A DNA stretch of 64,000 bases from Bacteroidota bacterium (GCA_031424495.1 JANPHP010000343.1:11218-75217), one strand, 5' to 3'; shown: positions 18,394-61,558, counted from the first letter of the stretch. Numbers and translations are program-made. Notes: a model not told the origin generated them from the letters alone.

Positions 18394-19686
18394 TCAATGG
18401 CGCATGAGCAGCACCTTCTCAGTTCTCAAGACCTGCTCGTCCGACAGCAATTGTAGGAAATAGGCACCTGCGGGGATGCTACTCGCATCCAATTCAAGCG
18501 ATTGGTTTTTGGCGGAGCCATCGACGGACCATGACTTCAGCGACTGCCCATTCAGATTGAGCAGCTTGAGCTCATAGTTTGCAACAACAAGACCTTGCAG
18601 TTGCACGCCAATCACCCCATTGCTAGGATTGCCGCGCAATTGCAACATCGGCGTTGTGGCGCGGGGATCGGTGGTGCCGACCGTTGTGGACACTTCAAAG
18701 TCGAGCACAACAGGAAAGTGATCGCTTGAAAGTTTCAAGTTGTTGAGTACGGTCGCATTCACGCTTGCGTTGGGTGCATGCGGGTTGCCGGGCACCCAAT
18801 AGGTGCTCGGCAGTGCACGAATGCCGTCGGTTTGGTTGAGCACGGCATTGGAAACCAAAATGTGGTCAAACCGATCGTCGAGGGCGCCGCCCGAGCCGCA
18901 GGGATTTGCGGGGCTCGACGAGGTCGCCTGTGTCATGGCAGGAAGCGTGCTGCCGTTGCTGTGCCAGTTGCCCACGAGGTTCAGTACATCGTTGAGTTTG
19001 CAATCGGCATTGGAATGGGCGATCATATTTTGAAATGAGGCCGCGGTAGAACCGTCCAAGTTAAAATCGCCCTGCACGATAAAATTGCCGCTACGCCCCA
19101 ATCCATCTAGGAAATTCATGATGTCGGCAGTTTGCACTTGACGAGTATTTTCATCGGATGCATGCAAATGCACCTGAATGACCTCCAAAAACGTGGTGTC
19201 GCCCGTGGCGAGCCCCGGGCCTTTGTGGTAAAATTTGTAGTAGTTGATGTCGCGCAGCGTCAAGGTAGGCTCTGGAACCACGGCTTGCATTGCCAGTCCA
19301 AATTTGTCGCTGTTGTAGTACATGCAATTGGCGACGTCTTGGCTGTTGTTGAATGTCATCGTTGTGGTGCGATAGGCGGGGTTCACGTTTTGCAACACGT
19401 TGATGAGCAAATTGTTGGCGGGGCTGGTCGGTCCAGCGAAAGGGCCTATTTCATTTACCCCAAAGATGTCTGGCCGTGTCGTGCTCAAGATGCTTGTGAG
19501 GTAAGGATTCCGCGTGGTCACACCTGTGGGCGTGCAGCCGATCCCCTGAGCGCCGTAGCGCAAAAGATTGTAGGTCATCACCCTGATGGTGTCTTGCGAC
19601 AAGGCGCTTCCAGATAGCGTCAGCACAAGCAACAAGCTCAGGCTCCACCTCCGTACAATCGTTGATTTCATCTTGATTTCCGTCAT
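18394..19686 (-). CDS. Secreted endonuclease/exonuclease/phosphatase with T9SS C-terminal domain
   Basis: VMTYNL, GVNE, QGDFN, FDHILVS and SDHFPV motifs. CTD GNPS...PAGAYFLQL...KVLL. Confidence 0.88.
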   Translation of the reverse strand: MTEIKMKSTIVRRWSLSLLLVLTLSGSALSQDTIRVMTYNLLRYGAQGIGCTPTGVTTRNPYLTSILSTTRPDIFGVNEIGPFAGPTSPANNLLINVLQNVNPAYRTTTMTFNNSQDVANCMYYNSDKFGLAMQAVVPEPTLTLRDINYYKFYHKGPGLATGDTTFLEVIQVHLHASDENTRQVQTADIMNFLDGLGRSGNFIVQGDFNLDGSTAASFQNMIAHSNADCKLNDVLNLVGNWHSNGSTLPAMTQATSSSPANPCGSGGALDDRFDHILVSNAVLNQTDGIRALPSTYWVPGNPHAPNASVNATVLNNLKLSSDHFPVVLDFEVSTTVGTTDPRATTPMLQLRGNPSNGVIGVQLQGLVVANYELKLLNLNGQSLKSWSVDGSAKNQSLELDASSIPAGAYFLQLLSDEQVLRTEKVLLMRH

Positions 19687-19738
19687 TTACCTAGCCAAAA
19701 GTAGTGAGATATTCGGTAAAAAGCCCTATTTTTCATCT

Positions 19739-21058
19739 GTGAATGCAAATTTGAGTATCTCTCGGCAGGTGTCGAAGGTCAGTCTTTGGCTGATCGTGGG
19801 AGTGGTGATGTGCGTCGATAGCGTCTTTGCACAATGGGCTTTTTTGGGACCACAATGGCTGCTCAACGACAGCGTGAGCGGGCATGCGATCTGCCTCAAT
19901 GACCACCGACAAGTACATGTCGCCACTGCAAGTGCAGGGGCTGTGCATGTGCAGCGGTTTGATGGCACCGATTGGCTGGACTTGGGTCCTGGCTTGCCGA
20001 TCACAGGTCAACTCGCCTGTGACTTGACCATGGACCATGAAGACGAGCCATTGCTGGTAACTGCACCGCTGCTTTCGCTCTATTCGTTTGACAATGGTCA
20101 CTGGACCTCAGAGGCGCTGCCTGTGGTGCAGGGCGCACGCGGGCCACGCATTTTGGAGTCGGTGGACGAGGTGAAGTGGCTGGCGTGGTGGCAGGCAGGC
20201 AGCGTGGACAGCACCTTTGTGATGCGCGACAGTGGATCGCTTGGCTGGCAGGTGGTCGGAGCATTTGCGGGGCGCCTCAACGATGTCGCGCTCAACGAGT
20301 CTAGCCGTCCAGTTTTGCTATTGCGCGGTGCGCCTGCGCTGCGCTATTATGCACAGGGCACATGGCGCTCGCTTCCCAATTTCTACCATGCAGACCAAGA
20401 ATACATCGCGCTGGCACCAGCACTCGATGGCTCAGGCTCGGGCGTTGCCGTTTTGCGGCGCGACAGCAGCAACGATCTCTCGGTGGAGCTGCTCAGCAAT
20501 GGCGCTTGGACCCAACTCGGCCCCAACGGATTTGCGTCGGGCGATTTGGCAGACCTCGCCCTGAGCCCCAACGGCGTTTTTCATGTGCTCAGCGAAGCCC
20601 ATGCGGTGCAAGGGCTGCCCCAAGTGTACCGTTTTGTCGCGGGCACCTGGCAATTGCTGGGTGGGCAATATGTCTACAACAATCCAGTGAGCGCACCACT
20701 GCTGGCTTTTGACATGGGTGCTGCCTTTGTCCTGTTTCAGGATGATGAGCAGGGCTTTCGCAACAGTGTGATGTACCTCGGCAATCCGGTAGCGACCGAT
20801 GGCTTGCCCGCCGCACCGCTCGTTAAACTGTATCCCAATCCAGCCATCGATATCGTGCACCTGCGGTTGTCAACAGCATCCGGCGGGGGTATTTTGCACT
20901 TGAGCGATGCTTTTGGCAGGGAGATCGAGCATTGGGATGTGGCTGGGCGATCGCAAATGGATTTGGCCGTTGGTCATCTTCCGGCCGGGCGGTATTGGTT
21001 GAGTTTGCAACATCTTCATGGCCTGCCTAGCATTGGCACATTCCTCAAAATAAACTGA
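19739..21058 (+). CDS. T9SS-secreted beta-propeller-like protein
   Basis: Repeats of (F/Y).G..W..LG. CTD LYPNPA...LPAGRYWL. Start (GTG 19739) uncertain. Confidence 0.75.
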   Translation: MNANLSISRQVSKVSLWLIVGVVMCVDSVFAQWAFLGPQWLLNDSVSGHAICLNDHRQVHVATASAGAVHVQRFDGTDWLDLGPGLPITGQLACDLTMDHEDEPLLVTAPLLSLYSFDNGHWTSEALPVVQGARGPRILESVDEVKWLAWWQAGSVDSTFVMRDSGSLGWQVVGAFAGRLNDVALNESSRPVLLLRGAPALRYYAQGTWRSLPNFYHADQEYIALAPALDGSGSGVAVLRRDSSNDLSVELLSNGAWTQLGPNGFASGDLADLALSPNGVFHVLSEAHAVQGLPQVYRFVAGTWQLLGGQYVYNNPVSAPLLAFDMGAAFVLFQDDEQGFRNSVMYLGNPVATDGLPAAPLVKLYPNPAIDIVHLRLSTASGGGILHLSDAFGREIEHWDVAGRSQMDLAVGHLPAGRYWLSLQHLHGLPSIGTFLKIN

Positions 21059-21783: not shown

Positions 21784-22323
21784 TTAGAGCGTCGAGCCGT
21801 ATTCGCCGCCTTTGGGCTTCAAGTCGCCGACGATGATGCGGATGAAGTCAATCAGCCACAGAATGCCAAACAAGCCGCCTGTGAAGAGCATCAAGATGCC
21901 GACACCAGTATAGCCAAGGTAGAAGCGGTGAACGCCAAGCCCACCCAAAAAGAAGCACAAGAGCAATGCAACAAGTTGGCTTTTGCCGCCGTTGGTTTCC
22001 TTGATATCGGCTTTGCGCTGCGCTTTTTCCATGCGCTTCTCCAGCATTTTGGGCGCGTGGGTCATCGTTGTTGTTGTCGCTGCTTGGCGGACGGTTTTTG
22101 CAGCTGGCGCGGCAGCGGCCTTGGGTGTTGTAGCTTCTGGGGCTACGGCAGTTGAAGGGCTGGCGAGCATTTCGTCGTTGGCGAGCATGGTCTCGTTAAC
22201 GGGGGCGCTCATGGCTGTAGCCTCTGAGCGCGGCGCGGCTGTTTCCGAGCCTTTTGCGGCCATCAACGTTGTGGCCGAGAAGGCCATGCATGCAGCGATT
22301 GCGTAAATCTTAATCATTTTCAT
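21784..22323 (-). CDS. TM2-domain protein with signal peptide and Ala/Thr-rich linker
   Basis: KSQLVALLLCFFLGGLGVHRFYLG...TGGLFGILWLIDFIRI motif. Confidence 0.9.
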   Translation of the reverse strand: MKMIKIYAIAACMAFSATTLMAAKGSETAAPRSEATAMSAPVNETMLANDEMLASPSTAVAPEATTPKAAAAPAAKTVRQAATTTTMTHAPKMLEKRMEKAQRKADIKETNGGKSQLVALLLCFFLGGLGVHRFYLGYTGVGILMLFTGGLFGILWLIDFIRIIVGDLKPKGGEYGSTL

Positions 22324-22472
22324 ACGTTTTGTGTTTAGAGTGATGAATAAAACGGAGGTGAATTTAGAAAATAGATTTTTGCCAGTAACAAAAATGCTGC
22401 CAATCATACCGCAATTTGATTAGATGCAATCAACACAGTTGATATTCAAGGCCAAAAATTGAAATACGCTTG

Positions 22473-22958
22473 TTAGGGCTTATCTCCACCGGAAGAAGCA
22501 GGCACTTCATATTGAAAAGTGTCCCGTTTGATCGTCGTGGTGGTTGTCGTCTTGGTGGTGGAATGCGAAGTCTCGTAACCTGACAACTTGCCTCGCAGGC
22601 GCTCATCGAGCACATATTTCCAGATGAGCCACGCGGCACCGCCTATGATGGCCGTGGTGATGATGAATCTGAAAAGGCGGCCAAGGAAGCTGCCGCCGCT
22701 TGCGGGGGCATTGATGGCGGGTGTATAGGCAGCCATGCCCGCCGCCACGGCCGCCGCCTTGGCGACCGCCATTTCCTTTTTCATGGACGCGCTTGCCGTC
22801 TGTTGCGTCGCGGCCTCCATTTGCAGCATCATCGACAGCATCTCCGCCAATGCAGGTTCGGCTCGCAGGCGTGCCTCGCATGCCTGCAAATCCTCTCCCG
22901 CCAATTCCCCGGCGAGGTAGGCTTCCAACAGCGCGATATCTTGTTCCTGCAATTCCAT
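22473..22958 (-). CDS. Putative anti-sigma factor, single TM
   Basis: LEAYLAGEL...EARL..EP.LA N-terminus, one TM. Directly follows the ECF sigma gene. Confidence 0.65.
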   Translation of the reverse strand: MELQEQDIALLEAYLAGELAGEDLQACEARLRAEPALAEMLSMMLQMEAATQQTASASMKKEMAVAKAAAVAAGMAAYTPAINAPASGGSFLGRLFRFIITTAIIGGAAWLIWKYVLDERLRGKLSGYETSHSTTKTTTTTTIKRDTFQYEVPASSGGDKP

Positions 22959-23513
22959 TTATGCCTTGCCTTGCTTTTCCTCCATCAATTTTTTCAAACG
23001 CAAAATGCACTTGTATTTCTGCGTTTTCACCGTGTCGGCATTGGTATAGCCGAGTTCGGATGCGATTTCGTCCATGCTCATTTTCAAGAAATAGAAGCGC
23101 TCCAAGACTTTGCGGCATGCGTCGCCGATTGTTTCGAGGCATTCGCGCAGACTTTTGAGAAGCGGCTCATTGGATTCCTCTGCCTCCTCTTGCGCGACGT
23201 CGATCGGGTTTTCAAAGTCGATGAGCTTGGTCTTGCCCTTTTCGCGCAAGCGCTTGAGCCAGATGTTGCGACACACCGAATAAATATAGGTCTTGAGCGT
23301 CGCCGTCAGTTGCAATTCGCCCAGCCGCAGCTTGCCGATCAAAACCATGAGCGCATCCTGAAAGACATCATCCGCCTCGGTCGGCGTCCCCGAATTCTGC
23401 ACAACAAGAAACCGCACCATCGGATAATGCTGCTGGTAGAGGCGGGTAAACGCCTCTTGCTTGCCTGTGCGCAAGCCTTGCAACAATTCCTGATCTGGTA
23501 GGGCGCCTTTCAT
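22959..23513 (-). CDS. ECF-type RNA polymerase sigma factor
   Basis: Region 2 ADDVFQDA...TYIYSVCRNIW and region 4 SMDEIASELGY...KTQKYKC. Confidence 0.92.
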   Translation of the reverse strand: MKGALPDQELLQGLRTGKQEAFTRLYQQHYPMVRFLVVQNSGTPTEADDVFQDALMVLIGKLRLGELQLTATLKTYIYSVCRNIWLKRLREKGKTKLIDFENPIDVAQEEAEESNEPLLKSLRECLETIGDACRKVLERFYFLKMSMDEIASELGYTNADTVKTQKYKCILRLKKLMEEKQGKA

Positions 23514-23667
23514 GTTGTGATTGGATGCCACAATTTAGGAAAAGTAACCATTGATAGGAGGATAAATTTAAGATCCTGCTGATCACAACCGCTTGCGATC
23601 GCCGCCGCGAATTCATTTAACCCATGAAGCCCCTGCATTGCCCACTGAATTCTGATAAATTTGCAGC

Positions 23668-24552: not shown

Positions 24553-25656
24553 TCAAGCCTCGGATTTGGGCCAAGTGAACCAGAAGGCTGCTCCATGGCC
24601 GAGCGATGACTCCACCCAGATTTTGTGGCCTGCATCCTCGACGATGCGCTTGACAATCGACAGGCCTATGCCCGGCGTGTCGTCATCGTCCTTGCTTTTG
24701 AGCGTCTGAAAAATCTCGAAAATGCGTTCGTGGTGGATGGGATCGATACCTAGGCCATTGTCAATCACCCCAAACTTGTAGTGCTGCCCCATATCTACAA
24801 AGCGCACTTCGATCTGACAATTTGCTTGGTTGTTGTGCTTGCAGGCGTTGATGAGCAGGTTGGAAAAGACTTGGTAAAGAGCAGTACGGGATGAGTGCAC
24901 CGTCGGCAAATCGGTGGGCAAATGTATCTCGCAGTGATTGGGGTTGATGAGTGTCTCCTGAATTTCCAGCAACAAGCTCCTTAGACCGATCTCTTCCTGT
25001 GACTGCCCCTCATAACCCGCCCGATGGTAACGAAAGATGCCATCGATCAGGCCCTCCATGCGCTGCACCCGGCTGTGCATGAGGCGGATGAATTTTGGCA
25101 ATTCCTGCAAGTCTCCCGCTTCAAAAGCTTCACTGATCCATGTCGCCAGGTTGCCGATGGTGCGCAAGGGTGCCTTGAGGTCGTGGGAAACGATATAGGA
25201 AAACCGTTGCAGGGCTTGGTGGGCCTCTTCCAGCTGCTGCGTGTACTCCCTGAGCGTCTGCTCCTGCTCGGTCATGTGCTCCAAGCCGATGTGGATCTCG
25301 TTGCGATCTTGCTGTATGTGGCGCAGCCGTTCAGAAGGCATGTCTTCATGGTTCATCAACCACAAAATACCCTCGACTCCCTCTTGGGCCCAGAGATCGA
25401 TGCTCAGCAAATATTCCTTGTCGTCATAAGGAAAGGCGAGCATGGGTAGGTGAATGTGGGGATCGCCAGGTTGCAATTGCAGGATGGTTTGCTCCAAGCC
25501 TTGAAACATGAAAAACAAGGACAATACCTCTTGACCCGCGTGCTGCATGAGGGGCATGATGCTGTCGCAGCTCGCCGTCAAATGACCCGTGCGGTCAATG
25601 ACCACCAATTGATGTCGGCGAGCGACAATCTCATTTTTGAGCGTGGTGATGTTCAT
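24553..25656 (-). CDS. Cytoplasmic sensor histidine kinase
   Basis: H-box SHDLKAPLR, N-box NLLINACKH, DNGLGI, IFEIFQ and GIGLSIV. No TM segment. Confidence 0.93.
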   Translation of the reverse strand: MNITTLKNEIVARRHQLVVIDRTGHLTASCDSIMPLMQHAGQEVLSLFFMFQGLEQTILQLQPGDPHIHLPMLAFPYDDKEYLLSIDLWAQEGVEGILWLMNHEDMPSERLRHIQQDRNEIHIGLEHMTEQEQTLREYTQQLEEAHQALQRFSYIVSHDLKAPLRTIGNLATWISEAFEAGDLQELPKFIRLMHSRVQRMEGLIDGIFRYHRAGYEGQSQEEIGLRSLLLEIQETLINPNHCEIHLPTDLPTVHSSRTALYQVFSNLLINACKHNNQANCQIEVRFVDMGQHYKFGVIDNGLGIDPIHHERIFEIFQTLKSKDDDDTPGIGLSIVKRIVEDAGHKIWVESSLGHGAAFWFTWPKSEA

Positions 25657-26141
25657 GATAGCATGCCTAGGCCGAGTGCAATGAATAATTCCTCGACATT
25701 TTCGCCCGTTTTTGCGCTGCTCAGATAGTCATAGTGGCCGCGAAACCGCTCCCGAAAGTCGCGCAGTTGCACCTCGTCGATGAGGTCACGCTTGTTGCCG
25801 ATGATGCGCACGGTTGCCGTCGGCAATCGCTCGACAAAGTACTGCAATTCTGCCTCGATCGCCTCCCAAGTTGCAGGCCGCGTGAGGTCAAACACGTAGA
25901 CGATGCCGTGTGCCCCCGCAAAATAAGAAGGGGGCAAGTGTTGTTGGGACTTGCCGCCCTCGATGTCCCAAAGGATCATCGTGAGGTGATGGTCACCGAT
26001 GATCACTTCTTTTTTGTCGATCTTCACCCCGATCGTCGTCTGGTATTCCTCAGAGAATTTTTGCACGACAAACCGCTTGACGAGCGAAGTCTTGCCGACG
26101 CCAAAATGGCCCAAGAGGATGACTTTCTTACTGATTTTCAT
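25653..26141 (-). CDS. Rab-like small GTPase (Ras superfamily)
   Basis: G1 GHFGVGKTS, G2 TTIGV, G3 WDIEG, G4 NKRD, G5 SAKTG. 162 aa. Confidence 0.93.
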   Translation of the reverse strand: MKISKKVILLGHFGVGKTSLVKRFVVQKFSEEYQTTIGVKIDKKEVIIGDHHLTMILWDIEGGKSQQHLPPSYFAGAHGIVYVFDLTRPATWEAIEAELQYFVERLPTATVRIIGNKRDLIDEVQLRDFRERFRGHYDYLSSAKTGENVEELFIALGLGMLS

Positions 26142-26988
26142 GGATGATGGACGCTAGGTGTACCTGCAGGGCTTTCGAATTATTGATGACCAATTCTTCC
26201 GTGATCTGATCCTTGGTTACGATCTTGTGCTGCTCTGCAAAATGCAAGAGCATGTCGGTGAGGAGCAGTTTGAATTCTGAATTGACCGAGCCCGACACCA
26301 CGACCGCAATGTAATAGGTGTGAAAATTGTTGAGCACGATCTTGTAGGAGTCATATTCGATGGTCTCCAAGGCCTGCTCTCCCTTGCTGAAGGCGTGTTC
26401 GACAAATGACTTGATGGCTGTGAGCATGCCAGCGATCATGTCGCGATCGGCGAGCTCGTTTCGCGACCATGACCCGGCGAGTAAACCGCTCGCATTGTCG
26501 ATGATGAAAACCTCCTCGACCCGTGTGCGCATCAAGTCTTGCACCATGCGGTCCTTTTCCGATTCACCCTTGAACCAACCCTTGAACCGGCGCAGCCAAG
26601 CCTGCCAGGAAAACGTTTGGTTGATCTGCTGATCGATGCGCTCGGTGAGGGCCTCGATCTCCTTGGCCACAAACTTGCGAATGAGCTTGCCGATGATCGG
26701 GTACAAGGCATCGACCATCTCGTCTTGCGACTCCGCGATCTGTCGCTTGATCGTGCTGCTGAGCACCGGTCCAAACAACTCCGGAAAATTTTCCTGCAAA
26801 TATTTGACCTTGTCCTCGATGAATGGGCTCACCCGCGCTTGGATCTCGGCGGGGGAGACGAGTTGCTGGCGCAAGCCGTCGATCTCTTCCTTGATCTGCG
26901 TAGACAACGCGCGATCATCCTCCAGCAACAATTGCTGTAGGCGTTGGAAGCGCTCTTGCGTCTTCAGATCGTGCTCAGTCTCGTTCAA
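26128..26988 (-). CDS. Helical protein with C-terminal longin/roadblock-like domain
   Basis: Coiled/helical N-terminus, then VEEVFIID..SGLL...DMIAGMLTAIKSFV..AF...IAVVVSG. Overlaps the GTPase start. Confidence 0.75.
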   Translation of the reverse strand: MNETEHDLKTQERFQRLQQLLLEDDRALSTQIKEEIDGLRQQLVSPAEIQARVSPFIEDKVKYLQENFPELFGPVLSSTIKRQIAESQDEMVDALYPIIGKLIRKFVAKEIEALTERIDQQINQTFSWQAWLRRFKGWFKGESEKDRMVQDLMRTRVEEVFIIDNASGLLAGSWSRNELADRDMIAGMLTAIKSFVEHAFSKGEQALETIEYDSYKIVLNNFHTYYIAVVVSGSVNSEFKLLLTDMLLHFAEQHKIVTKDQITEELVINNSKALQVHLASIIHENQ

Positions 26989-27006
26989 TGCGGGTTAATG
27001 ATAGGC

Positions 27007-27414
27007 TTATTCCTGCAGCGAGCGACCCAGGGCCTCCAGAGCCTGCCCGAGTTTGAAGCGGTCTGCCTTGTGGTGATCCACGCGGTCGATCTCCGATTTG
27101 AGATCCATCTCGACTTCGTCGAGCTTGTGGTTGAGCGTGCGATCCAAGTCTTTGATCACGGCGCTCAGATGATCGTCGAGGGTCGCGATCTTGTTTTCAA
27201 ACTTCTCGTCGAGTTGCGCCAGCTTCTGGGCATATTTCTCGTCGAGTTCTTTGAGGGAAAGCCGCAAGGCGGCATAGTCCTCGCCAAAGATGATGTCCTT
27301 GATCGCCTCGATCTTGGAGTTGTAGTGCGATGTGGAGACCGTTGGTTCCACGGGTGGTTGCGGCTCAGGAGCCTGCTTTTTCACCTCTTGCTTTTTTTCT
27401 TCCTGCTTTGCCAT
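27007..27414 (-). CDS. Coiled-coil protein
   Basis: IEAIKDIIFG followed by a heptad/11-mer charged helix. Confidence 0.75.
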   Translation of the reverse strand: MAKQEEKKQEVKKQAPEPQPPVEPTVSTSHYNSKIEAIKDIIFGEDYAALRLSLKELDEKYAQKLAQLDEKFENKIATLDDHLSAVIKDLDRTLNHKLDEVEMDLKSEIDRVDHHKADRFKLGQALEALGRSLQE

Positions 27415-27427
27415 CGGGTTTCGACAA

Positions 27428-28078
27428 TTAGTGGGTTTTGAGTGGAGCTTTTTGGGAAAGTATGCTCAGGGTATGCAGATCGGCGACCCCTGATGCAAAC
27501 AATTGTTCTTTGACTTGGAATGCTTTCACAGCCGCTTCGGTTTCCAGCATGTAATAGCCGTCGGTAGGGATCGCATAGGCAAGGGAGAGCAATTGCCGCT
27601 GCAGCAACAGCACGCCTGCAGTGCGGTCACCCTTGGTGAGCATGGGCGCACCATAGGTATGCATCGCAAGTGCATCATTGAGGCTGATGTCGGCAGTTTC
27701 CATGTACTTGATTTCGACGTTGGTGAGGCCCTGTGCCTTGAGGTTTTTGGATCTGCTCAGGCGATTGCCGAGCGAGTCGGTATAGGCTTTCAGGCTATTG
27801 TAGTGCAGCGTGGCGGCTTGTGAAGCGGCATCGTCGCTCGTGGGAAATCGCACGTCGAGGCCGCGCTCTTGCCACATTTCGCGAGCGAATGAACCTACGG
27901 CATAGCCCGTTGCATAATAATCCTTAATCGCTTTCTGATCATGGTAATCAGCATCGACATCCACACGAAAGCTGTATTCGTAATCTGCAGGCGGGTTCAG
28001 GCGCCTGAGTTTGTATGCCATCACAATGACAGCGATGCACAAGGCAGCAATTGCCGAGGCAAATAGTATTTTCTTCAT
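27428..28078 (-). CDS. Membrane-anchored peptidoglycan-binding-domain protein
   Basis: N-terminal TM. C-terminal LTKGD...V..LQ..L...Y....DGYY..ETEAAVKAFQ....L..SGVAD..T (PG_binding_1). Confidence 0.85.
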   Translation of the reverse strand: MKKILFASAIAALCIAVIVMAYKLRRLNPPADYEYSFRVDVDADYHDQKAIKDYYATGYAVGSFAREMWQERGLDVRFPTSDDAASQAATLHYNSLKAYTDSLGNRLSRSKNLKAQGLTNVEIKYMETADISLNDALAMHTYGAPMLTKGDRTAGVLLLQRQLLSLAYAIPTDGYYMLETEAAVKAFQVKEQLFASGVADLHTLSILSQKAPLKTH

Positions 28079-47431: not shown

Positions 47432-48160
47432 GTGGGAGAGAAAATAGCAATATCAGAAGCCTTTGACGGGAGGTCACAGTTGCCCAAGGCAGCCCTTGCC
47501 CACTATTTGCTCAGCAAGCAGCCCCATTCGAGTAAAACGGCTCTCAATTGGCGCATCCATGAGTTATTGCAGCAAGGGCAAATCTTGAGTATCGGCAGAG
47601 GTCGTTATGCCTTGCCACAAAAAGCAGAATATCGACCCGTGATTGGAGAGCGGATGCGATCGATAGGGGCACTGGTAAAGACAGGCTTTCCTTTTTTGGA
47701 AAGTTCGATCTTTCATACAGAGCAATTGAGCAGCTTCATGCAGCATATACCGGGAAGGCACTTTTTGCTGTTGGAGGTGGAACGTGTGGGAATGGAAGCC
47801 CTGTTCTATAAATTGAAAGATGCTGGGCTGCCGTGCTATTTGCAGCCTGATGTAGCGACGATGCAGCGATATGTCGCCTTTGAACACGAGCCTTTGATCA
47901 TACAACCTTTGCTTACTGAGGCGCCTTTGCTTGGCTCAGGGGAGGTAGCAATGCCATCCTTGGAAAAACTGTTGGTAGACCTGGCATGTGAAAAGGCTAT
48001 CTATAGCGCTTTTCAAGGGGCTGAATTGAGGTATATCTACCAAAATGCGTTTGCGGCATACCAGATTAGAATAGATCGCATGTTACGGTATGCGGATCGG
48101 CGCCGTCGTAGAGATTTGATCTTGAGCTATTTGAATATTTTCGGAATTGAAGTTGTCTGA
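47432..48160 (+). CDS. AbiEi-like antitoxin/regulator (DUF6577-like)
   Basis: N-terminal wHTH (IGRGRY), P.LEKLLVD and MLRYADRR motifs. Precedes an AbiEii gene. Confidence 0.78.
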   Translation: MGEKIAISEAFDGRSQLPKAALAHYLLSKQPHSSKTALNWRIHELLQQGQILSIGRGRYALPQKAEYRPVIGERMRSIGALVKTGFPFLESSIFHTEQLSSFMQHIPGRHFLLLEVERVGMEALFYKLKDAGLPCYLQPDVATMQRYVAFEHEPLIIQPLLTEAPLLGSGEVAMPSLEKLLVDLACEKAIYSAFQGAELRYIYQNAFAAYQIRIDRMLRYADRRRRRDLILSYLNIFGIEVV

Positions 48161-48189
48161 CATTTCATTGGTATTCGTAGGTTTGTGGC

Positions 48190-49257
48190 ATGATAGACCC
48201 TCATTCGCAAACGCTACGGTGGATACAAACTGTTTCTGTGCAACAGAAGATTTCAGACAAAGTTTTGCTTGAAAAGACCATTCGTGCATTGACGCTATTG
48301 GAGTGCCTGGTCGCTCAGGACTTGCAATTTGTCTTCAAAGGTGGTACTGCCTTAATGCTCCTCCTTCAAACCAGCCGAAGGCTGTCGATCGATATTGATA
48401 TCATCATGGTGCAAGCACGCGAGGATCTCATGTCACAGTTGCAGTTGGCAGCGGCACGAGGAGGTTTTTTGCGGGTTGAGGAACATGCACGTGGACACCG
48501 TACAGGGTTAAGAAAGGCGCATTTCAAGTTTTGGTATGTGCCAAGCTTTCAAACCAATCAAAAGGAAGACTACGTTTTGCTTGATATTGTCTTTGAGCCA
48601 ATTCGCTATCTGAAAGTGACCAATCTCCCGATCACATCACCCTTGTTGATGCAGAGCGATATTCCCATGTTGGTGCCGATGCCCTCGGTCGAAGACATCC
48701 TGGGCGACAAACTCACTGCTTTTGCCCCAGCGACGACCGGAATCCCTTATTTCAAGGATGGAGTTTCCAAGTCGATGGAAATCATCAAACAACTTTTCGA
48801 CATCGGCTGTCTTTTCGATCTCGTGGAGGATCTTGATCGTTTGCAGGCAGCCTTTTTTGCATTTGTACGCTCAGAATTGGCTTATCGCAGCATCGAATCG
48901 CAAGACTTGACCGTTGTCCTCAATGATATAATCGATACAGCATATTGTATATCCACACGAGGAAAGTATGCACCTCAAGATTTTGGCGAATTGCAAGCGG
49001 GAATCCAACGCGTGCAATCATTCATTTTCTCGGAGAGCTACCACTTGGACAAGGCTATCACCCATGCTGCAAAGGCGGCCTATCTCGCCAAAGCAATTAT
49101 GGCAAATGCAGAGAAGCTATATTTCTTTGATCGGGAGCACGCGATCGGCTTGGAGTTGATTGCAGGTGCCGAAAGAAATCATTTGAACAAACTAAAGAAG
49201 TCGAATCTGGAAGCTTTCTTTTTTTGGCATCAAGCGCTTGCCTTAGATGCTGGCTAA
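48190..49257 (+). CDS. AbiEii/AbiGii nucleotidyltransferase toxin
   Basis: FKGGTAL, RLSIDIDI, GDKLTAF and KQLFD motifs. Confidence 0.9.
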   Translation: MIDPHSQTLRWIQTVSVQQKISDKVLLEKTIRALTLLECLVAQDLQFVFKGGTALMLLLQTSRRLSIDIDIIMVQAREDLMSQLQLAAARGGFLRVEEHARGHRTGLRKAHFKFWYVPSFQTNQKEDYVLLDIVFEPIRYLKVTNLPITSPLLMQSDIPMLVPMPSVEDILGDKLTAFAPATTGIPYFKDGVSKSMEIIKQLFDIGCLFDLVEDLDRLQAAFFAFVRSELAYRSIESQDLTVVLNDIIDTAYCISTRGKYAPQDFGELQAGIQRVQSFIFSESYHLDKAITHAAKAAYLAKAIMANAEKLYFFDREHAIGLELIAGAERNHLNKLKKSNLEAFFFWHQALALDAG

Positions 49258-49366
49258 TTTTTTCAATATCCCCCCCCCCGTCCAATAATCTGTGCAACCC
49301 CAGGCCTGCAAGTGCAGTATTATTCATGCAGGTGCTTTTAATTCGCAGACTTGAAAATTGCTGGAT

Positions 49367-50149
49367 ATGCAGAAGAATGAGAATCGCGCGCAATGGATGC
49401 GGCAAATGGGTTTGAAGGGTGGACTGTTGCTCACGCTTGTGATGCTGCTGATTGCCTGCGTGGCCAAGCAGTCTCCGCATCATGCTGCGGAACCGCAGCT
49501 GATCGGCAGTCAGCAAATCAGCGATGTGGAGCTGAACAAGTTTGAGCCCGAGATGATGCGTTTTGATTCCTTGCTGCTTTCGGCAGTCGAGCCCAAGGGT
49601 GGCATCGTGTTCGCTGGTAGTTCCAGCATCCGCAAATGGGATAGCCTTGTCAAGGACATGAAGCCCTTGCCAGTGGTAAACCGTGGTTTTGGCGGTGCCA
49701 TTATCAAACAAGTCACTCATCAATCGACACGCTTGATCGTGCCACTGCATCCCAAGCTCATCGTATTTTACTGTGGCGAAAACGACATTGCCAACGATGT
49801 CTATCCCGCCGAGATGCCTCTGAACGATTTCAAGGCATTCACCAAGTCGATGCACCAAAAACTTCCCGGCACTGGCATCCTCTTTGTCTCCCTCAAACCT
49901 TCACCACTGCGCTGGAAATATTGGGGCAAGTTTCAGCAGACCAACCGACTCATCAAGGACTATGTACAAACGCAAGAACGCATGTGGTATGTCGATGTAA
50001 GTGCTCCGATGCTCAATCCCCAAGGATTGCCACGTCCAGAGCTGTTTGGCAGCGATTCCTTGCACATGAGTCTCGCAGGATATGCCCTCTGGACCCGCAT
50101 CCTGAAACCGCATGTGGCGCAGTACTTTGATGAATTGAGCCAAAACTAG
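49367..50149 (+). CDS. SGNH/GDSL hydrolase lipoprotein
   Basis: Lipobox LIAC, then GSSS, NRGFGG, GEND and DSLH motifs. Confidence 0.88.
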   Translation: MQKNENRAQWMRQMGLKGGLLLTLVMLLIACVAKQSPHHAAEPQLIGSQQISDVELNKFEPEMMRFDSLLLSAVEPKGGIVFAGSSSIRKWDSLVKDMKPLPVVNRGFGGAIIKQVTHQSTRLIVPLHPKLIVFYCGENDIANDVYPAEMPLNDFKAFTKSMHQKLPGTGILFVSLKPSPLRWKYWGKFQQTNRLIKDYVQTQERMWYVDVSAPMLNPQGLPRPELFGSDSLHMSLAGYALWTRILKPHVAQYFDELSQN

Positions 50150-50214
50150 CATTGAGGGCCACGGTCCGTGAACATCGGTAGTGGAGAAGCGTGGAAAATT
50201 TCTAAATTTGGATC

Positions 50215-51825
50215 GTGGGATTCATGGAGTTAAACTATTATCGACTCAGGCGCTTGTTCTGCGGTATCGTTGTGCTTTTTTGCACGGGGTCGGTCGATGC
50301 CCAAGTGATTTCCACCTATCCGGGACTCAATGCCCAAGCCCAACTCATATTGCATTTGGATGGCCTAGAAAGCAGCTGGGAGGTGATGAATGCACGGGCT
50401 CTGGAATCCAATATGGAATCGACCGCTCCCGAGGTGGTGCTGCCGACAGAGGAGGCACTCGCCAAGGAACTTCGATTGGTAATGGGGGATGTGAAACTCT
50501 CGCTCACGCAACGCGTTCGTGACTTTATCATACTTTTTGCGAAGCAGCGCCGCCATAGTACGGAGGCGATGCTAGGCGTTGCGACCATCTATGCACCCGT
50601 CATCGATCGCAAAATCACCGAACTCAAAATGCCGCCCGTGCTTGGGTTCTTTCCGGCAGCCCTGTCGGCCTTTCACCTGCGGGCGATTTCACAAGACGGC
50701 GCAGCCGGGCTCTGGCAACTCAATTATTATGTGGCCATCAAGCAGGGCTTGGTCTGCAATGCAACAGTCGATGAGCGTCGTGACCTCTACCTGAGCACGC
50801 GCGCAGCCCTCAATTACCTCGCCGAACTGAACAAGGATTACCACGACTGGGCTGTGAGTCTAGCGGCTTACACCTGTGGGCCTGCAGGGATAGCGCGTGC
50901 GCGGCAACGCGCTGGCGCAAATGCGGGTTTTGATCAGCTCTATGCTTTTCTCCCAGCAAGTGGGCGCGACTATGTGCCCGCATTCGCGGCAGCCGTTTAT
51001 GTGTTTACGCATACGAGGCAGCTGGGTCTCAGGCCCCTCGCAATGGAGGTGATGCCTTTGCCAGACCGCATTCAACTACAGGAACCACTCCGTTTTTCCC
51101 ATGTGGCCCAAGCGCTCGGCATTCCTGAGGACAAATTGCGCAACCTCAATCCCGTTTGCCGCACAGAGATCATCCCTGGCATCAACATGCCCGTGCAGCT
51201 TTGTTTGCCGCAGGGTTATGGGCAACGATTTGCCGCGCTCAAGGACTCCATCTACACGTTGCAACTCCGCACCGACGCCGCTGAAAAGAAACTTGAACCC
51301 AAGCCCGAGGCCACGAGTGGCGAAACCAATGAGCCTAGCAAGCTCAAAAGCATATCGGTGGCACCAGTGCCGATCAAGCCCTATGCGCCGCCAACAGGCA
51401 CGGTACCGCTCGTGTACACCATCAAGTCGGGCGACAATACAGGCCTCATTGCGCAGTGGTTTGGCATCCCCGTCAAGGATTTGAAACTGATGAATGGCTT
51501 GAAAAGCGACAATATCAAGGCTGGCGATCAACTCACCATCCACGTAGCCAAAGCAAGGGCAGCAAGCCTCGGCAAGCTCGACGGCATGAGCTTCGAGCAA
51601 AAGCAAGCCTCCGTCGGCGGCACGGCGCCCGCGCCGCTGCCCAAAATTGAGGCGCTGCCTAGCAATGGTGCCTATGTCATTCACACCGTAAAATCAGGCG
51701 AAAACCTCTGGCTCATCGCCAAGCAATATCCTGGCGTCACCACCGAGGCGATCATGAAAGCCAACGGCGTGACACCCAAATTGCAACCTGGAATGAAACT
51801 CAAAATCCCGAAGGTCACCAAGTGA
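50215..51825 (+). CDS. MltD-like SLT + LysM protein, catalytic Glu apparently lost
   Basis: GAAGLWQL, VDERRD...TRAA..YL, AAYTCG and two or three LysM domains. PAALSA where PxxESA is expected. Confidence 0.85.
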   Translation: MGFMELNYYRLRRLFCGIVVLFCTGSVDAQVISTYPGLNAQAQLILHLDGLESSWEVMNARALESNMESTAPEVVLPTEEALAKELRLVMGDVKLSLTQRVRDFIILFAKQRRHSTEAMLGVATIYAPVIDRKITELKMPPVLGFFPAALSAFHLRAISQDGAAGLWQLNYYVAIKQGLVCNATVDERRDLYLSTRAALNYLAELNKDYHDWAVSLAAYTCGPAGIARARQRAGANAGFDQLYAFLPASGRDYVPAFAAAVYVFTHTRQLGLRPLAMEVMPLPDRIQLQEPLRFSHVAQALGIPEDKLRNLNPVCRTEIIPGINMPVQLCLPQGYGQRFAALKDSIYTLQLRTDAAEKKLEPKPEATSGETNEPSKLKSISVAPVPIKPYAPPTGTVPLVYTIKSGDNTGLIAQWFGIPVKDLKLMNGLKSDNIKAGDQLTIHVAKARAASLGKLDGMSFEQKQASVGGTAPAPLPKIEALPSNGAYVIHTVKSGENLWLIAKQYPGVTTEAIMKANGVTPKLQPGMKLKIPKVTK

Positions 51826-53348
51826 AGCTAGAGCAACCCGATAAGGAAATCAAAGCTGCAAGCGTGCAACCGTGGTACGTGTTGGTTTTTGTGAGTGCGG
51901 TAATCGCCGTATTGGGTGTCATTTCGTTTTTTTATCCCAAGGGTGGCATTCACGTGGGCTTGTCGGTTGGGGACACAGAGATCGTCCCTGAGTTCAGATT
52001 GTTTTTCCCGACTTGGGCGGATTGGTTTGAGCGCGATACGACCAAAGCTGCCGACATCAACACGATCGTTGCCAATTTGGAGGGGCCTGTCGAGTCCTCG
52101 GCCGCCGCTAGCTTGGATACCAACGGGCGGTTTGTGAAATCGGCCGACCTTGCCAGCCAACCCAAGTCGATCCAATATCCTGACAACGATCCCAGCATTC
52201 TTTTTTCTGTTTTTGAGGGTTTGGAGCAATCCCAAAATGCCAGCAAGCCAGTGCGGGTTTTGCACTTTGGGGATTCGCAGATCGAGGGCGACCGCATGAG
52301 TTCCCTGTTCCGTGCACGCATCCAGGAAAAGTTTGGCGGCGGCGGGCCGGGTTTGGTCGCTGCCAAGCCCCTCACCAGCTCGATGTCGGTGGTTGTGGAG
52401 TATGCCGAATCCATGCAGCGCTATGCCCAGTTTGGCTTTGGTGACAATTCCGTCAAGCATCGTCGCTACGGAGCCATGGCGACCTTTTGCCGATTTGGGC
52501 CGATTACCCCAGACAGCACGTTCACCGAAACTGAATTGCAAACAGGATGGGTGAGCTTGAGCGTGTCGCGGGCAGCCTACGCGACCAGCAAAAATTTCAA
52601 TACCTTGAAAATGTTCTACGGCTTCAACCGCAGCGAGGTCAATGTCAAGGTCTTCTTGGACGATGTCTTGTTTGCGGATGATAATCTGCCTGCCAATAAG
52701 ACGCTCAAGGTCAAGCGTTGGAAACTGGACAAGACCCCCAACAAGATCATGATCATCATGGAGGGATTTGACAGTCCAGACTTGTATGGATTGAGTTTGG
52801 AAAGCAGTGCAGGGGTCGTGCTCGACAATATTTCCATGCGGGGCAGTTCGGGAACCTCCTTTACAGCCTTGGAGACAGTGCCTTTCAGGCCGATGGTGGA
52901 TAGTTTGAATCCGAAGCTCATTCTCTTGCAATATGGCGGTAATACAGTGCCTTACATCAAGGATATCAAAGCGGCCCAGGGTTATGGGCACAACTTCAAG
53001 GCGCAGATTATGCACCTCAAGAACATGTTTCCAGGTGTGGGCATCATTGTGATCGGCCCGAGCGACATGAGCACGATGATCGATGGCAAGATGCAGAGCT
53101 ACCCCAACTTGCCCAATGTACGAGATGCGTTGCGGCAGGCGGCATTTGATGCTGGAGCGGCATTTTTTGATATCTACGAAGCCATGGGCGGTCAAAATTC
53201 GATGATCGAATGGGCCGAGGCCGACCCGCCTTTGGCGGCTGCAGATTATGTACACTTCTCGCCGCAAGGCGCGCGCATCATCGCCGAGGCCTTTATCAAG
53301 TCATTCATGGCCGACTATGAGGCCTACCACCGAGCACGCATCAATTGA
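51822..53348 (+). CDS. Membrane-anchored SGNH protein (PatB/Ape-like O-acetyltransferase or esterase)
   Basis: TM anchor, HFGDSQIEGD, QYGGN and ADYVHF motifs. GTGA overlap with the upstream gene. Confidence 0.82.
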   Translation: MKLEQPDKEIKAASVQPWYVLVFVSAVIAVLGVISFFYPKGGIHVGLSVGDTEIVPEFRLFFPTWADWFERDTTKAADINTIVANLEGPVESSAAASLDTNGRFVKSADLASQPKSIQYPDNDPSILFSVFEGLEQSQNASKPVRVLHFGDSQIEGDRMSSLFRARIQEKFGGGGPGLVAAKPLTSSMSVVVEYAESMQRYAQFGFGDNSVKHRRYGAMATFCRFGPITPDSTFTETELQTGWVSLSVSRAAYATSKNFNTLKMFYGFNRSEVNVKVFLDDVLFADDNLPANKTLKVKRWKLDKTPNKIMIIMEGFDSPDLYGLSLESSAGVVLDNISMRGSSGTSFTALETVPFRPMVDSLNPKLILLQYGGNTVPYIKDIKAAQGYGHNFKAQIMHLKNMFPGVGIIVIGPSDMSTMIDGKMQSYPNLPNVRDALRQAAFDAGAAFFDIYEAMGGQNSMIEWAEADPPLAAADYVHFSPQGARIIAEAFIKSFMADYEAYHRARIN

Positions 53349-54631: not shown

Positions 54632-54644
54632 GAAACCGACGACT

Positions 54645-56342: not shown

Positions 56343-56668
56343 GCAGAATTTACAGAATTTTCCGAATCAGTTTTGGTGTTGAATTCTGGGTGGCTAGTGT
56401 TGGGCAGTATTTGGAGCAGAATATACAGAATTTTCCGAACCGATGTTGGTGTTGAATTCTGGGTGTTGAGCTGAGTAGAATTTGGAGCAGAATATACAGA
56501 ATTTTCCGAATCAATTCTGGTGTTGAATTCTGGGTGGCTAGTGTTGGGCGGTATTTGGAGCAGAATTTACAGAATTTTCGGAACTGATTCTGGTGTTGAA
56601 TTAGCTGCGCTGAATGGCGTAGAATTCAACATAGCGCTGAATTCTGGAAATTCGGAAAATTCTGCTCA
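56340..56668. repeat. Array of four 71-73 bp tandem units closed by an inverted end
   Basis: Units start at 56341, 56414, 56485 and 56558 (gagcagaatWtacagaattttcSgaa). Inverted head at 56640-56668. Confidence 0.9.
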
Positions 56669-61556: not shown

Positions 61557-61558
61557 AA

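Follow-up and report, generated by a model that had tools for sequence, protein, structure and literature searches.

A five-gene operon around a small GTPase

The operon at positions 24553 to 28078 of a 64,000-nt Bacteroidota DNA stretch (the window, meaning the whole stretch that was analyzed) raises the question of whether a peptidoglycan-binding protein (PGB), a coiled-coil type protein (CC), a partner protein with a longin-type domain (PART), a Rab-like small GTPase, and a histidine kinase act as one signaling pathway, and whether that pathway is new. All five open reading frames (ORFs) are on the minus strand (Table 1). Direct reading of the sequence confirmed the tight packing described in the earlier note, with intergenic gaps of 13 and 18 nt, after which the genes overlap by 14 nt and then by 4 nt (ATGA). 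For PGB, the frame also stays open to a TTG at 28090, an alternative start, and the TTG of PART is the earliest start possible downstream of an in-frame TAA. Our explanation is that the operon probably encodes a Rup1 small-GTPase signaling module of Bacteroidota, in which the GTP form would act through a PAS-helix module of the kinase. All interactions among the operon proteins discussed below are predictions.

Table 1. Positions of the operon genes and their domains, numbered along the window
Feature	Position	Strand	Length or basis
PGB, peptidoglycan-binding protein	27428-28078	-	216 aa counted from ATG
PGB hydrophobic segment, residues 4-22	28013-28069	-	Kyte-Doolittle
PGB PG_binding_1 domain, residues 154-207	27458-27619	-	Pfam PF01471
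CC, charged helical coiled-coil type protein (putative)	27007-27414	-	135 aa
PART, longin-domain partner protein (predicted fold)	26128-26988	-	286 aa, TTG start
PART longin-type domain, residues 154-286	26131-26529	-	AlphaFold2 model
Rup-type (Rab-like) small GTPase	25653-26141	-	162 aa
Histidine kinase, whole ORF	24553-25656	-	367 aa
Kinase N-terminal module (N-module), residues 1-140	25237-25656	-	PAS-like fold plus long helix, predicted
Kinase core, HisKA plus HATPase_c	24553-25236	-	Pfam

Synteny of all five genes was retained in four family-level relatives with sufficient contig, and a contig end interrupted the locus in a fifth. A broader survey identified a relative in at least 552 species genomes and took the 80 best-matching loci. 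Among these 80 best loci, the four-gene core of CC, PART, GTPase, and output protein was complete at 64 and the full five-gene set at 27; the GTPase was directly downstream of PART in 78 (tblastn), an N-module ORF came next at 72, and a CC-homologous ORF of 106 to 139 aa was directly upstream of PART in 69. With synteny kept in relatives and the core conserved phylum-wide, the arrangement far exceeds chance. Individual departures included a locus (L047) with PART and no GTPase on a contig long enough to hold one, a genome (G035) with PART and PGB and no N-module, and a genome (G009) with an N-module kinase and no PART. Conservation of the cluster, whose absence the earlier note had named as a ground for refutation, was borne out at family level and in the core, but of the five genes originally grouped together, PGB proved to be no universal member, as it was adjacent in 29 of the 80 best loci.

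Relationship to described GTPase systems

The GTPase matches the Pfam Ras family (7.2e-28) and contains each of the motifs G1 to G5: GHFGVGKT at 11, YQTTIG at 33 (with switch I residue T36), WDIEG at 58, NKRD at 116, and SAK at 142. Gly63, after WDIEG, takes the place of the Ras-family Gln, and the C terminus (...GLGMLS) has neither Cys nor lipidation tail, all in agreement with the earlier reading of a GTPase that keeps its motifs without a G3 Gln or a prenylation tail.

Gene neighborhoods of Group 1 Rup GTPases, whose carriers include Bacteroidetes, were described from genomes by Wuichet and Sogaard-Andersen in 2014 as consisting of rup, a coiled-coil gene, a gene with an unassigned domain to which a transmembrane (TM) helix plus OmpA is often appended, and an output gene encoding a kinase or c-di-GMP enzyme, the N-terminal region of which is conserved and contains an invariant Gln (PMC4316618). 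According to that paper, the G3 Gln is missing from Group 1 Rup and none of 121 Rup genes is coupled to MglB; an analogy to the actinobacterial conservon is also proposed there. Because this description fits feature for feature, the operon is not undescribed, although the earlier note had called it its best candidate for an undescribed system. The GTPase is a Ras-superfamily protein below the 240-aa limit with eukaryote-like G1 to G5 and no G3 Gln; its CC neighbor is a putative cytoplasmic coiled coil; PART has a conserved domain and longer homologues with BON/OmpA; and the output protein has an invariant Gln (Q16) in its N-terminal region. Assignment to the Rup1 class was made by matching motifs and neighborhood to the description, and the nearest solved sequences are Rab7 (3.4e-21).

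The operon differs from the 2014 description in that its peptidoglycan-binding part is a separate PG_binding_1 protein rather than a fused OmpA. In addition, the two unassigned domains can now be given longin-type and PAS-like folds by prediction, and PP2C phosphatases, a sigma-54 activator, and standalone modules are added to the outputs. Literature searches found no bench work on a Group 1 Rup system, and we did not find in print the longin and PAS-like fold assignments, the predicted interface between GTPase and PAS helix, or the split peptidoglycan-binding architecture, for which neighborhood table S2 of the 2014 paper was outside the comparison.

Conservons (AGPS; CvnA-D, Mfp) have a GTPase of the MglA family and a roadblock protein that is MglB-type by sequence, and their core includes CvnC, a domain of unknown function with no counterpart among the five operon proteins. 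The lack of a CvnC-type family, together with a GTPase that retains the G3 Asp, sets the operon apart from a conservon. CvnA is sensor kinase-like and membrane-bound; the kinase of this operon is a soluble protein and one of several exchangeable outputs. MglA-MglB of Myxococcus xanthus likewise combines a small GTPase with a roadblock-fold regulator, and PART aligned with MglB at Z 9.7 (rmsd 2.9, 102 residues; VIA-align). MglA is without the G3 Asp that is present in all other GTPases, according to the 2014 paper (PMC4316618). The operon is set apart from MglA/MglB by the invariant D59, by the absence of any Robl_LC7 match in PART at E <= 1 (Pfam), and by a likeness that is at fold level only; unlike MglB, the PART domain has two longin C-terminal helices and is preceded by a 150-residue helical N-terminal half.

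The kinase N-module as a candidate GTPase effector

Pfam placed HisKA at kinase residues 149 to 213 (2.3e-6) and HATPase_c at residues 257 to 365 (3.8e-23). The H, N, G1, and G2 boxes of a HisKA-type kinase are all present (SHDLKAPL at 157, with phospho-acceptor His158; NACKHN at 270; DNGLGI at 299; GIGLSI at 329). Because its hydropathy maximum is only 1.03 (Kyte-Doolittle), the kinase is considered soluble, as the earlier note had stated. The accompanying claim that the window lacks a response regulator also held, as Pfam scans found no Response_reg domain in the five operon genes, in 52 window ORFs at E <= 1e-5, or in 8 additional short window ORFs at E <= 1e-3, with two antisense ORFs (22803-23501 and 26944-27441) omitted from the window scan.

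The kinase N terminus is modeled as a PAS-like fold (residues 1 to 107) with a long helix (residues 108 to 139; model pLDDT 92.2). All 50 of 50 VIA-align rows were PAS domains, the best being PYP (Z 11.2, rmsd 2.4, 91 residues), and the best Foldseek rows were mostly PAS and PAS-containing photosensors (E ~1e-3). At the level of sequence, residues 1 to 140 matched no PAS family in Pfam at E <= 1, and a profile of the N-module had no match among PDB sequences. The helix carries Q115, Q116, R118, and an invariant N119; Q16 was present without exception (54 of 54 N-modules), and conservation was 87% for each of Q115 and Q116.

This module was found in 509 cluster representatives and is specific to these Rup1-type systems. 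Among the 150 representatives listed, it began no more than 14 residues from the N terminus in 149, and many of the proteins were about 130 aa long. Elsewhere the module is standalone or fused to hybrid kinases, PAS-kinases, or PP2C phosphatases; 20 proteins scanned comprised 8 kinases (6 with a receiver), 2 PAS-kinases, 4 SpoIIE phosphatases, 2 proteins with HisKA only, and 4 without another domain. In other Bacteroidota classes, the GTPase is followed by a sigma-54 activator, either directly (4 loci) or one ORF later (1 locus). The module is fused N-terminally to no fewer than four unrelated kinds of output, as expected of an input domain controlling the part downstream, and judged by these architectures the N-module behaves as one.

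A complex model of the GTPase with the monomeric 140-residue N-module fragment scored 0.66, and the best of three controls scored 0.01. In a calibration run without small molecules or user-made alignments, 58 of 80 solved complexes attained the 0.66 mark, as did 2 of 110 mismatched pairs. Contact between the GTPase and the N-terminal domain of the kinase, which the earlier note had put forward for modeling, was thereby supported. Runs shared at least 92% of contacts, with a pLDDT of at least 91 for the binding partner. In the model, the P-loop, switch I, and switch II of the GTPase pack on the N-module helix close to N119, and the lowest-error contacts are N119-F13 and N119-T35. Interface residues of the N-module were more conserved than its remaining residues (2.21 versus 1.65 bits; permutation p 0.0034). 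As part of the full-length kinase, the helix probably pairs in a dimeric coiled coil that continues into the DHp domain, and its exposed face in the fragment could therefore draw a false contact. Q16 is outside the predicted interface, and the model thus gives no specific backing for Q16 as the Gln that, in the published proposal, would be provided in trans.

Under the Rup1-module explanation, PART, perhaps with CC, would set which nucleotide the GTPase carries or where it is located, and PART may sit at the inner membrane next to periplasmic PGB. The GTP-bound GTPase would bind the PAS-helix module and move the helix leading into the phospho-acceptor domain, a shift that would switch kinase autophosphorylation and a putative response regulator. 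N119, with Q115 and Q116 close by, may complete the GTPase active site in trans, and effector binding would thereby also time GTP hydrolysis. As a whole, the interpretation in the earlier note, a eukaryote-like GTPase switch coupling cell-wall state or polarity to phosphorelay, is partly supported, with a part in polarity and GEF or GAP activity of PART as candidate roles.

The direction of signaling could instead be reversed, or the GTPase could act elsewhere, with the PAS-helix module mainly a GAP or sink, the kinase upstream as proposed for CvnA, or the real effectors being unlinked polarity, gliding, or envelope-growth proteins, as for MglA. The model puts N119 beside the P-loop and switch I, a place suited to a catalytic residue, and Rap, which likewise has no catalytic Gln, relies on RapGAP acting in trans, a GAP that supplies no Arg finger (PMC2265111). 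Standalone N-modules without an output domain exist and account for 10 of the 11 loci in one related family, and in Myxococcus the effectors of MglA are encoded away from mglA (PMC4316618). We consider this account unlikely, given that the module is fused N-terminally to unrelated outputs as input domains are, and that the helix on which the GTPase packs continues into the kinase core; it is also compatible with the Rup1-module explanation. RapGAP reportedly supplies an Asn, the "asparagine thumb." The likeness to the predicted complex is a Gln-less GTPase with an invariant N119 that the model brings into contact with the P-loop and switch I, and the differences are an unrelated fold (PAS domain plus helix) and a candidate catalytic role for N119 drawn from the model.

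Conservation of the nucleotide-binding site

Two positions depart from the Ras pattern across the GTPase family. Gln occupied position 63 in 8 of 81 sequences and another residue did so in 73, and at position 13 the 80 aligned sequences had mostly Phe (63) or Tyr (14). F13 aligned with the Ser of Rab7 GDSGVGKT, and we take it to be at the position of Ras Gly12. These substitutions would suit a GTPase that does not cycle and is permanently GTP-bound or a nucleotide-independent structural subunit, with PART as its scaffold or membrane anchor rather than its GEF or GAP, and longin and roadblock domains can also serve as plain platforms (PMC3747258). Such a non-cycling GTPase seems quite improbable, as the nucleotide-binding motifs were invariant in 46 homologues (G11, G16, K17, D59, G62, N116, K117, D119, and SAK), as expected of a working switch, the invariant N119 is at the active site in the model, and Rap hydrolyzes GTP without the Gln.

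A predicted longin-type domain in the partner protein

PART consists of a helical half with an invariant LYPIxG motif (residues 1 to 153) and a C-terminal domain that AlphaFold2 models in the order beta-beta-alpha-beta-beta-beta-alpha-alpha. Model pLDDT was about 70 to 80 for the C-terminal domain and <50 over long stretches of the N-terminal half (36 to 50). The Foldseek search suggested in the earlier note returned longin-type matches for the C-terminal domain, with Fuzzy, Ragulator, AP sigma, Mon1-Ccz1, and TRAPP as the best (E ~1e-4, probability 1.00). VIA-align gave Fuzzy (Z 12.3), MON1A (Z 11.9), and BLOC-3 (Z 11.7), each over 123 to 127 residues at 9 to 14% sequence identity, and the range of Z 10.3 to 12.3 also covered an archaeal Roadblock-Longin protein, TRAPP, and VAMP7 longins. 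The longin/roadblock-like C terminus that had been recognized from sequence was in this way borne out by predicted fold, and the C-terminal half of PART is modeled as a longin-type domain. In Pfam, PART had a match to Fuz_longin_1 alone, below threshold (E 0.0085; 16.7 bits, with a cut-off of 26.1), and its profile found no roadblock chain among PDB sequences. The longin fold is a GTPase platform in Rab GEFs such as Mon1-Ccz1 and Fuzzy-Inturned and in MglB-type regulators. Some PART homologues carry the automatic JGI name "Roadblock/LC7/MglB family."

The tri-longin Rab GEFs (Mon1-Ccz1 for Rab7, Fuzzy-Inturned for Rab23, and BLOC-3) thus provide the best structural matches to PART, and the GTPase here is closest to Rab7 among solved sequences; PART differs in having one longin domain rather than three and in its low identity. 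Taken jointly, these likenesses allow a reading that we find doubtful and offer tentatively, in which PART would be a single-longin GEF of the Mon1/Fuzzy type for a Rab7-like GTPase, and the PAS exit helix would be a new kind of effector that clamps the P-loop and switch I and gives an Asn in trans. If this were true, a single event would combine effector binding with hydrolysis of GTP and regulation of the output, be it a kinase, a phosphatase, or a sigma-54 activator, and the Rab-longin GEF partnership would be older than eukaryotes, on the bacterial side. This would fit the proposal that Rab, Ras, Rho, and Ran originated from Group 1 Rup via gene transfer.

Homologues of PART numbered 662 of similar length and 195 longer, and most of the longer ones among the matches listed were fused to BON and OmpA. 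For example, PART residues 49 to 254 aligned with residues 177 to 382 of a 699-aa cyanobacterial protein (34% identity, 1e-36) that runs on into BON and OmpA. Cyanobacteria have such fusions, and so do other Bacteroidota classes, in which the fused forms directly precede a GTPase.

A possible envelope link

PGB has a PG_binding_1 domain (2.9e-10) and a hydrophobic segment with a 19-residue Kyte-Doolittle mean of 2.63, and it is the sole operon product with a membrane-type segment on this scale. It is predicted from these features to be an exported or membrane-anchored peptidoglycan-binding protein. Only three residues precede the segment, so any coupling to cytoplasmic proteins would be via the membrane segment or indirect. 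Among 41 related genomes, PGB and PART co-occurred exactly, with 17 having both and PGB in none of the 24 others; because these genomes are related and therefore not independent, the matching pattern overstates its support. Together with the PART-BON-OmpA fusions, this co-occurrence lends indirect support to the envelope link that had been proposed.

No curated Pfam family was found in CC, whose helical or coiled-coil matches were weak and below cut-off (e.g., Apolipoprotein, 2.9e-4), and hydropathy gave no TM segment. Its N terminus is rich in Lys, Glu, and Pro, charged residues make up 38% of the protein, and its character is consistent with a putative coiled coil.

PGB is a lineage-specific member of the gene set, and it is very improbable that the genes are merely adjacent, with PGB and CC serving an unrelated envelope function and the PART-GTPase pair as the sole unit, for although PGB is missing from 51 of the 80 best loci, with fructose-1,6-bisphosphatase in its position in Flavobacteriia, and is encoded at a separate locus in one related family, it tracks PART across the 41 genomes, PART homologues are fused to periplasmic BON/OmpA in other lineages, CC keeps its place before PART at most best loci, and a CC homologue still comes after PGB in 3 of 8 cases of the separate locus.

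Layout of the GTPase operon

The operon is a real, well-conserved system and a further case of Group 1 Rup (Rup1), the GTPase class of Wuichet and Sogaard-Andersen (PMC4316618), whose neighborhoods are known from comparative genomics. Five minus-strand open reading frames (ORFs) occupy positions 24553 to 28078 of the window, and the five-gene anatomy proposed in an earlier note, made from sequence alone, was correct. Genes 1 and 2 are separated by 13 nt and genes 2 and 3 by 18 nt, the end of gene 3 overlaps the start of gene 4 by 14 nt, and gene 4 terminates in ATGA, which contains the start of gene 5. The TTG assigned to gene 3 is the earliest start codon past an in-frame TAA, and the first residue is also non-ATG in relatives of this gene. 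Because a TPR gene converges on them from one side (ending at 24537) and a beta-barrel gene diverges from the other (starting at 28581), the five genes form one block. Scans for promoters (5 versus a shuffled expectation of 3.9) and terminators (10 versus 6.2) were near background.

Genes of the operon, in order of transcription
Gene	Product	Start	End	Strand	Pfam
1	PG-binding protein	28078 (ATG)	27428	minus	PG_binding_1
2	Coiled-coil protein	27414	27007	minus	No family above threshold
3	Partner protein	26988 (TTG)		minus	Fuz_longin_1, sub-threshold (E 0.0085)
4	GTPase	26141 (ATG)	25653	minus	Ras; Roc and Arf secondary
5	Kinase	25656	24553	minus	HisKA and HATPase_c

Among the five products, only that of gene 1 has a membrane-type segment. 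The GTPase contains GHFGVGKT, T36, WDIEG followed by Gly, NKRD, and SAK; as the earlier note stated, its G3 motif is without Gln and it has no C-terminal Cys. That note also held that no response regulator lies in the window, and the domain scan of the window's ORFs returned no receiver domain. The partner protein had no match in NCBIfam. A defense-system reading was dropped because PADLOC matched none of the five proteins.

Within the GTPase P-loop, residue 13 (the Phe of G-H-F-G-V-G-K-T) is Phe in 63 of 80 homologues and Tyr in 14, and it aligns with Ser in the GDSGVGKT of Rab7. We take this residue to be at the position of Ras Gly12, where bulky residues block GAP-assisted hydrolysis.

A longin-type domain predicted in the partner protein

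In a structure model built from 37 homologues, the first 150 residues of the partner are long helices of low confidence, and residues 154 to 286 form a beta-beta-alpha-beta-beta-beta-alpha-alpha domain with a pLDDT of about 70 to 80. The best Foldseek matches to this domain were Fuzzy, Ragulator subunits, AP sigma chains, Mon1-Ccz1, TRAPP, and Rag C-terminal domains (E about 1e-4, probability 1.00). A Foldseek-independent aligner returned Fuzzy (Z 12.3, rmsd 2.7 over 123 residues), MON1A (Z 11.9), BLOC-3 (Z 11.7), and an archaeal Roadblock-Longin protein (Z 11.3), along with MglB (Z 9.7) and LAMTOR (Z 9.6), each of the last two over about 100 residues. Both aligners thus agree with the longin/roadblock-like C terminus of the earlier note, and because the two C-terminal helices are spanned by longins but not by roadblock proteins, the modeled domain is assigned as longin-type rather than roadblock. 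At the level of sequence, searches of Pfam and of PDB sequences with a partner profile gave no link to longins beyond the sub-threshold Fuz_longin_1 match, the PDB search returning coiled-coil noise alone (best E 0.04, apolipoprotein A-I). Clusters returned by the protein atlas belong to unnamed families only, with the automatic label “cell envelope biogenesis protein OmpA,” which most likely derives from fused homologues.

A PAS-like input module and its predicted contact with the GTPase

Residues 1 to 140 of the kinase (here, the N-module) were modeled from 54 homologues with a pLDDT of 92.2, and the model is a PAS-like fold followed by a 30-residue helix. All 50 aligner rows were PAS domains (top, PYP; Z 11.2), and the top Foldseek rows were mostly PAS domains and PAS-containing photosensors (E about 1e-3). 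The N-module profile had zero matches to PDB sequences at an E of ≤10. A second roadblock/longin domain at the kinase N terminus, considered by analogy with heterodimeric longin GEFs, was rejected because the predicted fold is PAS-like. Q16 and N119 are invariant in the module, and Q115, Q116, and R118 are highly conserved.

A HMMER search with the N-module returned 509 cluster representatives; 149 of the 150 listed have a match that begins within the first 14 residues, and protein lengths fall into classes. Twenty scanned representatives comprised eight kinases (six with a receiver and one with an Hpt as well), two PAS-PAS-kinases, four SpoIIE (PP2C) phosphatases, two proteins with HisKA only, and four without any other domain. 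In other classes of the phylum, a coiled-coil gene is followed by a partner-BON-OmpA fusion (577 to 637 aa), the GTPase, and a sigma-54 activator with PAS, a kinase taking the place of the activator at one locus. The profile matched just one sigma-54 activator of these loci, and three of the four activators directly after the GTPase (loci L115, L117, and L118) gave no match at an E of ≤1e-4. The N-module behaves as an exchangeable input domain, feeding at least four kinds of signaling output.

A model of the N-module with the GTPase, including GTP and Mg, supports the contact between GTPase and kinase N-domain that the earlier note envisaged, with a score of 0.66 (runs of 0.66, 0.69, and 0.65) versus 0.01 for the best of three controls. 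Of the solved complexes, 58 of 80 attain this score, as do 2 of 110 mismatched pairs; both counts apply only approximately here, since the input included custom alignments and small molecules. At least 92% of the contacts recur between runs, and the pLDDT of the partner chain in the complex is at least 91. The predicted interface comprises residues 49 to 54, 68 to 74, 83, and a helix face at 108 to 130 (including Q115, Q116, and N119) of the N-module, facing residues 13 and 14 (P-loop), 33 to 43 (switch I), 61, 70 to 76, and 88 to 90 of the GTPase, with the lowest predicted error for the pairs N119-F13 and N119-T35. Interface residues of the N-module are more conserved than the remainder, although the same alignment was fed to the model. 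Solved complexes of a PAS domain with a small GTPase are not known to us, and since the N-module profile also lacks a PDB match, the model seems unlikely to owe its score to a structure already seen. The main caveat is that the modeled fragment is a monomer, whereas in the full-length kinase its helix probably forms a dimeric coiled coil; counting against this, standalone N-module homologues retain the helix.

Proposed signaling and its alternatives

In the best reading, which we consider fairly probable, the longin-type protein, possibly aided by the coiled-coil protein, would control the GTPase close to the PG-binding protein at the membrane. The GTP form of the GTPase would then clamp the exit helix of the PAS-like fold and thereby set the kinase, and N119 may complete the GTPase active site in trans. 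A comparable case would be Rap, to which RapGAP provides an Asn. Rap too is without the Gln and receives help in trans, with no Arg finger coming from RapGAP (PMC2265111). Computation gave the gene order, the conservation, the folds, the domain fusions, the presence/absence patterns, and the controlled complex model; from these we infer every activity and the direction of signaling. A reversed direction, or GTPase effectors that are unlinked, is unlikely.

A GTPase that does not cycle is less probable again; the absence of the G3 Gln would suit such a protein, and Rap offers a precedent for the other side.

Conservation, distribution, and the envelope link

The GTPase, partner, and N-module are present in one copy each in the 7.7-Mb genome. 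The partner occurs in 16 of 40 relatives, in two families. Loci of the window's own family keep the five-gene order (four complete, one interrupted by a contig end). In the second family, 10 of 11 loci have, after the partner and GTPase, a 128- to 140-aa ORF homologous to kinase residues 1 to 130 only; the PG-binding gene is at a separate locus, and a coiled-coil homologue is next in 3 of the 8 such loci retrieved. The 128- to 140-aa ORF is followed by LpxK and further housekeeping genes; LpxK and the genes past this three-gene core look like housekeeping neighbors and were not counted as parts.

Scanning one genome per species placed partner relatives in at least 552 genomes. The best 80 were all Bacteroidota by label except for one MAG labeled Gammaproteobacteria, and their cultured carriers include members of Roseivirga (Roseivirga spongicola), Fulvivirga, Flexithrix (Flexithrix dorotheae DSM 6795), Flavobacterium (Flavobacterium croceum DSM 17960 and Flavobacterium gelidilacus DSM 15343), Polaribacter (Polaribacter glomeratus ATCC 43844), Aquimarina (Aquimarina litoralis), and Tamlana. 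Among these best 80 loci, the GTPase lies downstream of the partner in 78 by tblastn (77 as a complete ORF), an N-module ORF is next in 72, and a coiled-coil ORF is upstream in 69. Of the 80, 64 have the complete four-gene core, bearing out the conservation on which the earlier note depended, and 27 have all five genes. Several misses were contig ends; locus L047, where the partner gene is followed by 8 kb of contig without a GTPase, is a genuine exception. When the phylum was sampled evenly, the partner turned up in 17 of 401 genomes, so the system is patchy.

Two related genomes hold partial sets. G035 carries the partner and PG-binding gene, lacks an adjacent GTPase, and has no N-module anywhere in its genome; in G009 an N-module kinase is present, and the queries used found neither partner nor PG-binding gene. 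Near the partner-GTPase pair, a second GTPase gene is present at the Flavobacteriaceae loci L086, L087, and L089, and extra standalone N-module ORFs (127 to 223 aa) at L086, L087, L097, L106, and L110, suggesting local duplication of the GTPase-effector pair in these six Flavobacteriaceae loci.

The PG-binding gene is found in the window's clade and in Cytophagales; Flavobacteriia carry fructose-1,6-bisphosphatase at that position. It co-occurs with the partner in exactly the same 17 of 41 genomes, a pattern that is suggestive rather than statistical proof because kin are not independent. There were 195 longer partner homologues. Most of the 120 listed contain BON and OmpA domains, and those listed with an organism name are cyanobacterial; in one fusion, a partner-like region (residues 177 to 382) precedes BON (453 to 513) and OmpA (596 to 675). 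Together, fusions and common presence/absence patterns in sequence data are suggestive of a link between the module and peptidoglycan-binding periplasmic domains. They make it very unlikely that the outer genes are unrelated to the rest, as the separate PG-binding locus of the second family could be taken to mean.

Relation to known systems

Among bacterial GTPases, those of Group 1 Rup are the nearest to eukaryotic Rab, Ras, Rho, and Ran. The parts of the 2014 study covered here (PMC4316618) state that no Rup protein had been characterized and describe a Group 1 neighborhood in which a rup gene that lacks the G3 Gln is accompanied by genes for a coiled-coil protein, for a protein whose unassigned domain often has a TM helix and OmpA behind it, and for an output that is a c-di-GMP enzyme or kinase, with an N-terminal invariant Gln proposed to act in trans. 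The same parts liken Group 1 to the conservon and couple 0 of 121 rup genes to MglB. The operon matches this neighborhood in all points described there, and it is not the undescribed system for which the earlier note made it a candidate. The literature searched gave no later bench or structural work on Rup systems, and in the papers found Rup1 appears as a tree label only. The closest characterized analogue, judged from the covered part of PMC13343842, is the actinobacterial G protein system, which differs in GTPase family, CvnC component, and kinase type.

Not found in print were the assignment of the two domains to longin-type and PAS-like folds, the predicted interface of the GTPase with a helix bearing an invariant Asn, and the wider output set of the N-module. 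Nor was the split PG_binding_1 architecture with its matching presence/absence pattern, although table S2 of PMC4316618, outside the part covered, may list Bacteroidetes neighborhoods. Two “unknown” proteins of Rup systems thereby become testable parts, a putative longin-fold regulator and a PAS-helix effector module, the latter now with a predicted interface and candidate catalytic residues (N119, Q115, and Q116). If true, the proposal would give bacteria a G-protein input into two-component and sigma-54 signaling and would bear on the origin of Rab-longin GEF pairs.

Other genes in the window

On the far side of the convergent TPR gene at the operon's end, a minus-strand stretch (21784 to 23531) encodes an ECF-type sigma factor (Sigma70_r2; 22959 to 23531), an abutting 161-aa ORF without a family that is possibly an anti-sigma factor (22473 to 22958), and a TM2-domain protein (21784 to 22407). 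Two AbiEii-type toxin genes (PF08843), one preceded by a small DUF6577 gene (47432 to 49257; small gene, 47432 to 48160) and the other by a small DUF6088 gene (60933 to 62557; small gene, 60933 to 61556), resemble two type IV toxin-antitoxin pairs lying within 15 kb. Plus-strand genes at 49358 to 56342, for a GDSL lipase/acylhydrolase, a LysM-SLT transglycosylase, two further GDSL proteins, and an MBOAT O-acyltransferase, look like a cell-wall or polysaccharide O-acetylation cluster. A 1,083-aa protein (56666 to 59917) combines Sortilin-Vps10 and GEVED domains with a type IX secretion C-terminal sorting domain, and its sorting-domain tail is resembled by the tail of a 490-aa ORF without a Pfam match at 19586 to 21058.
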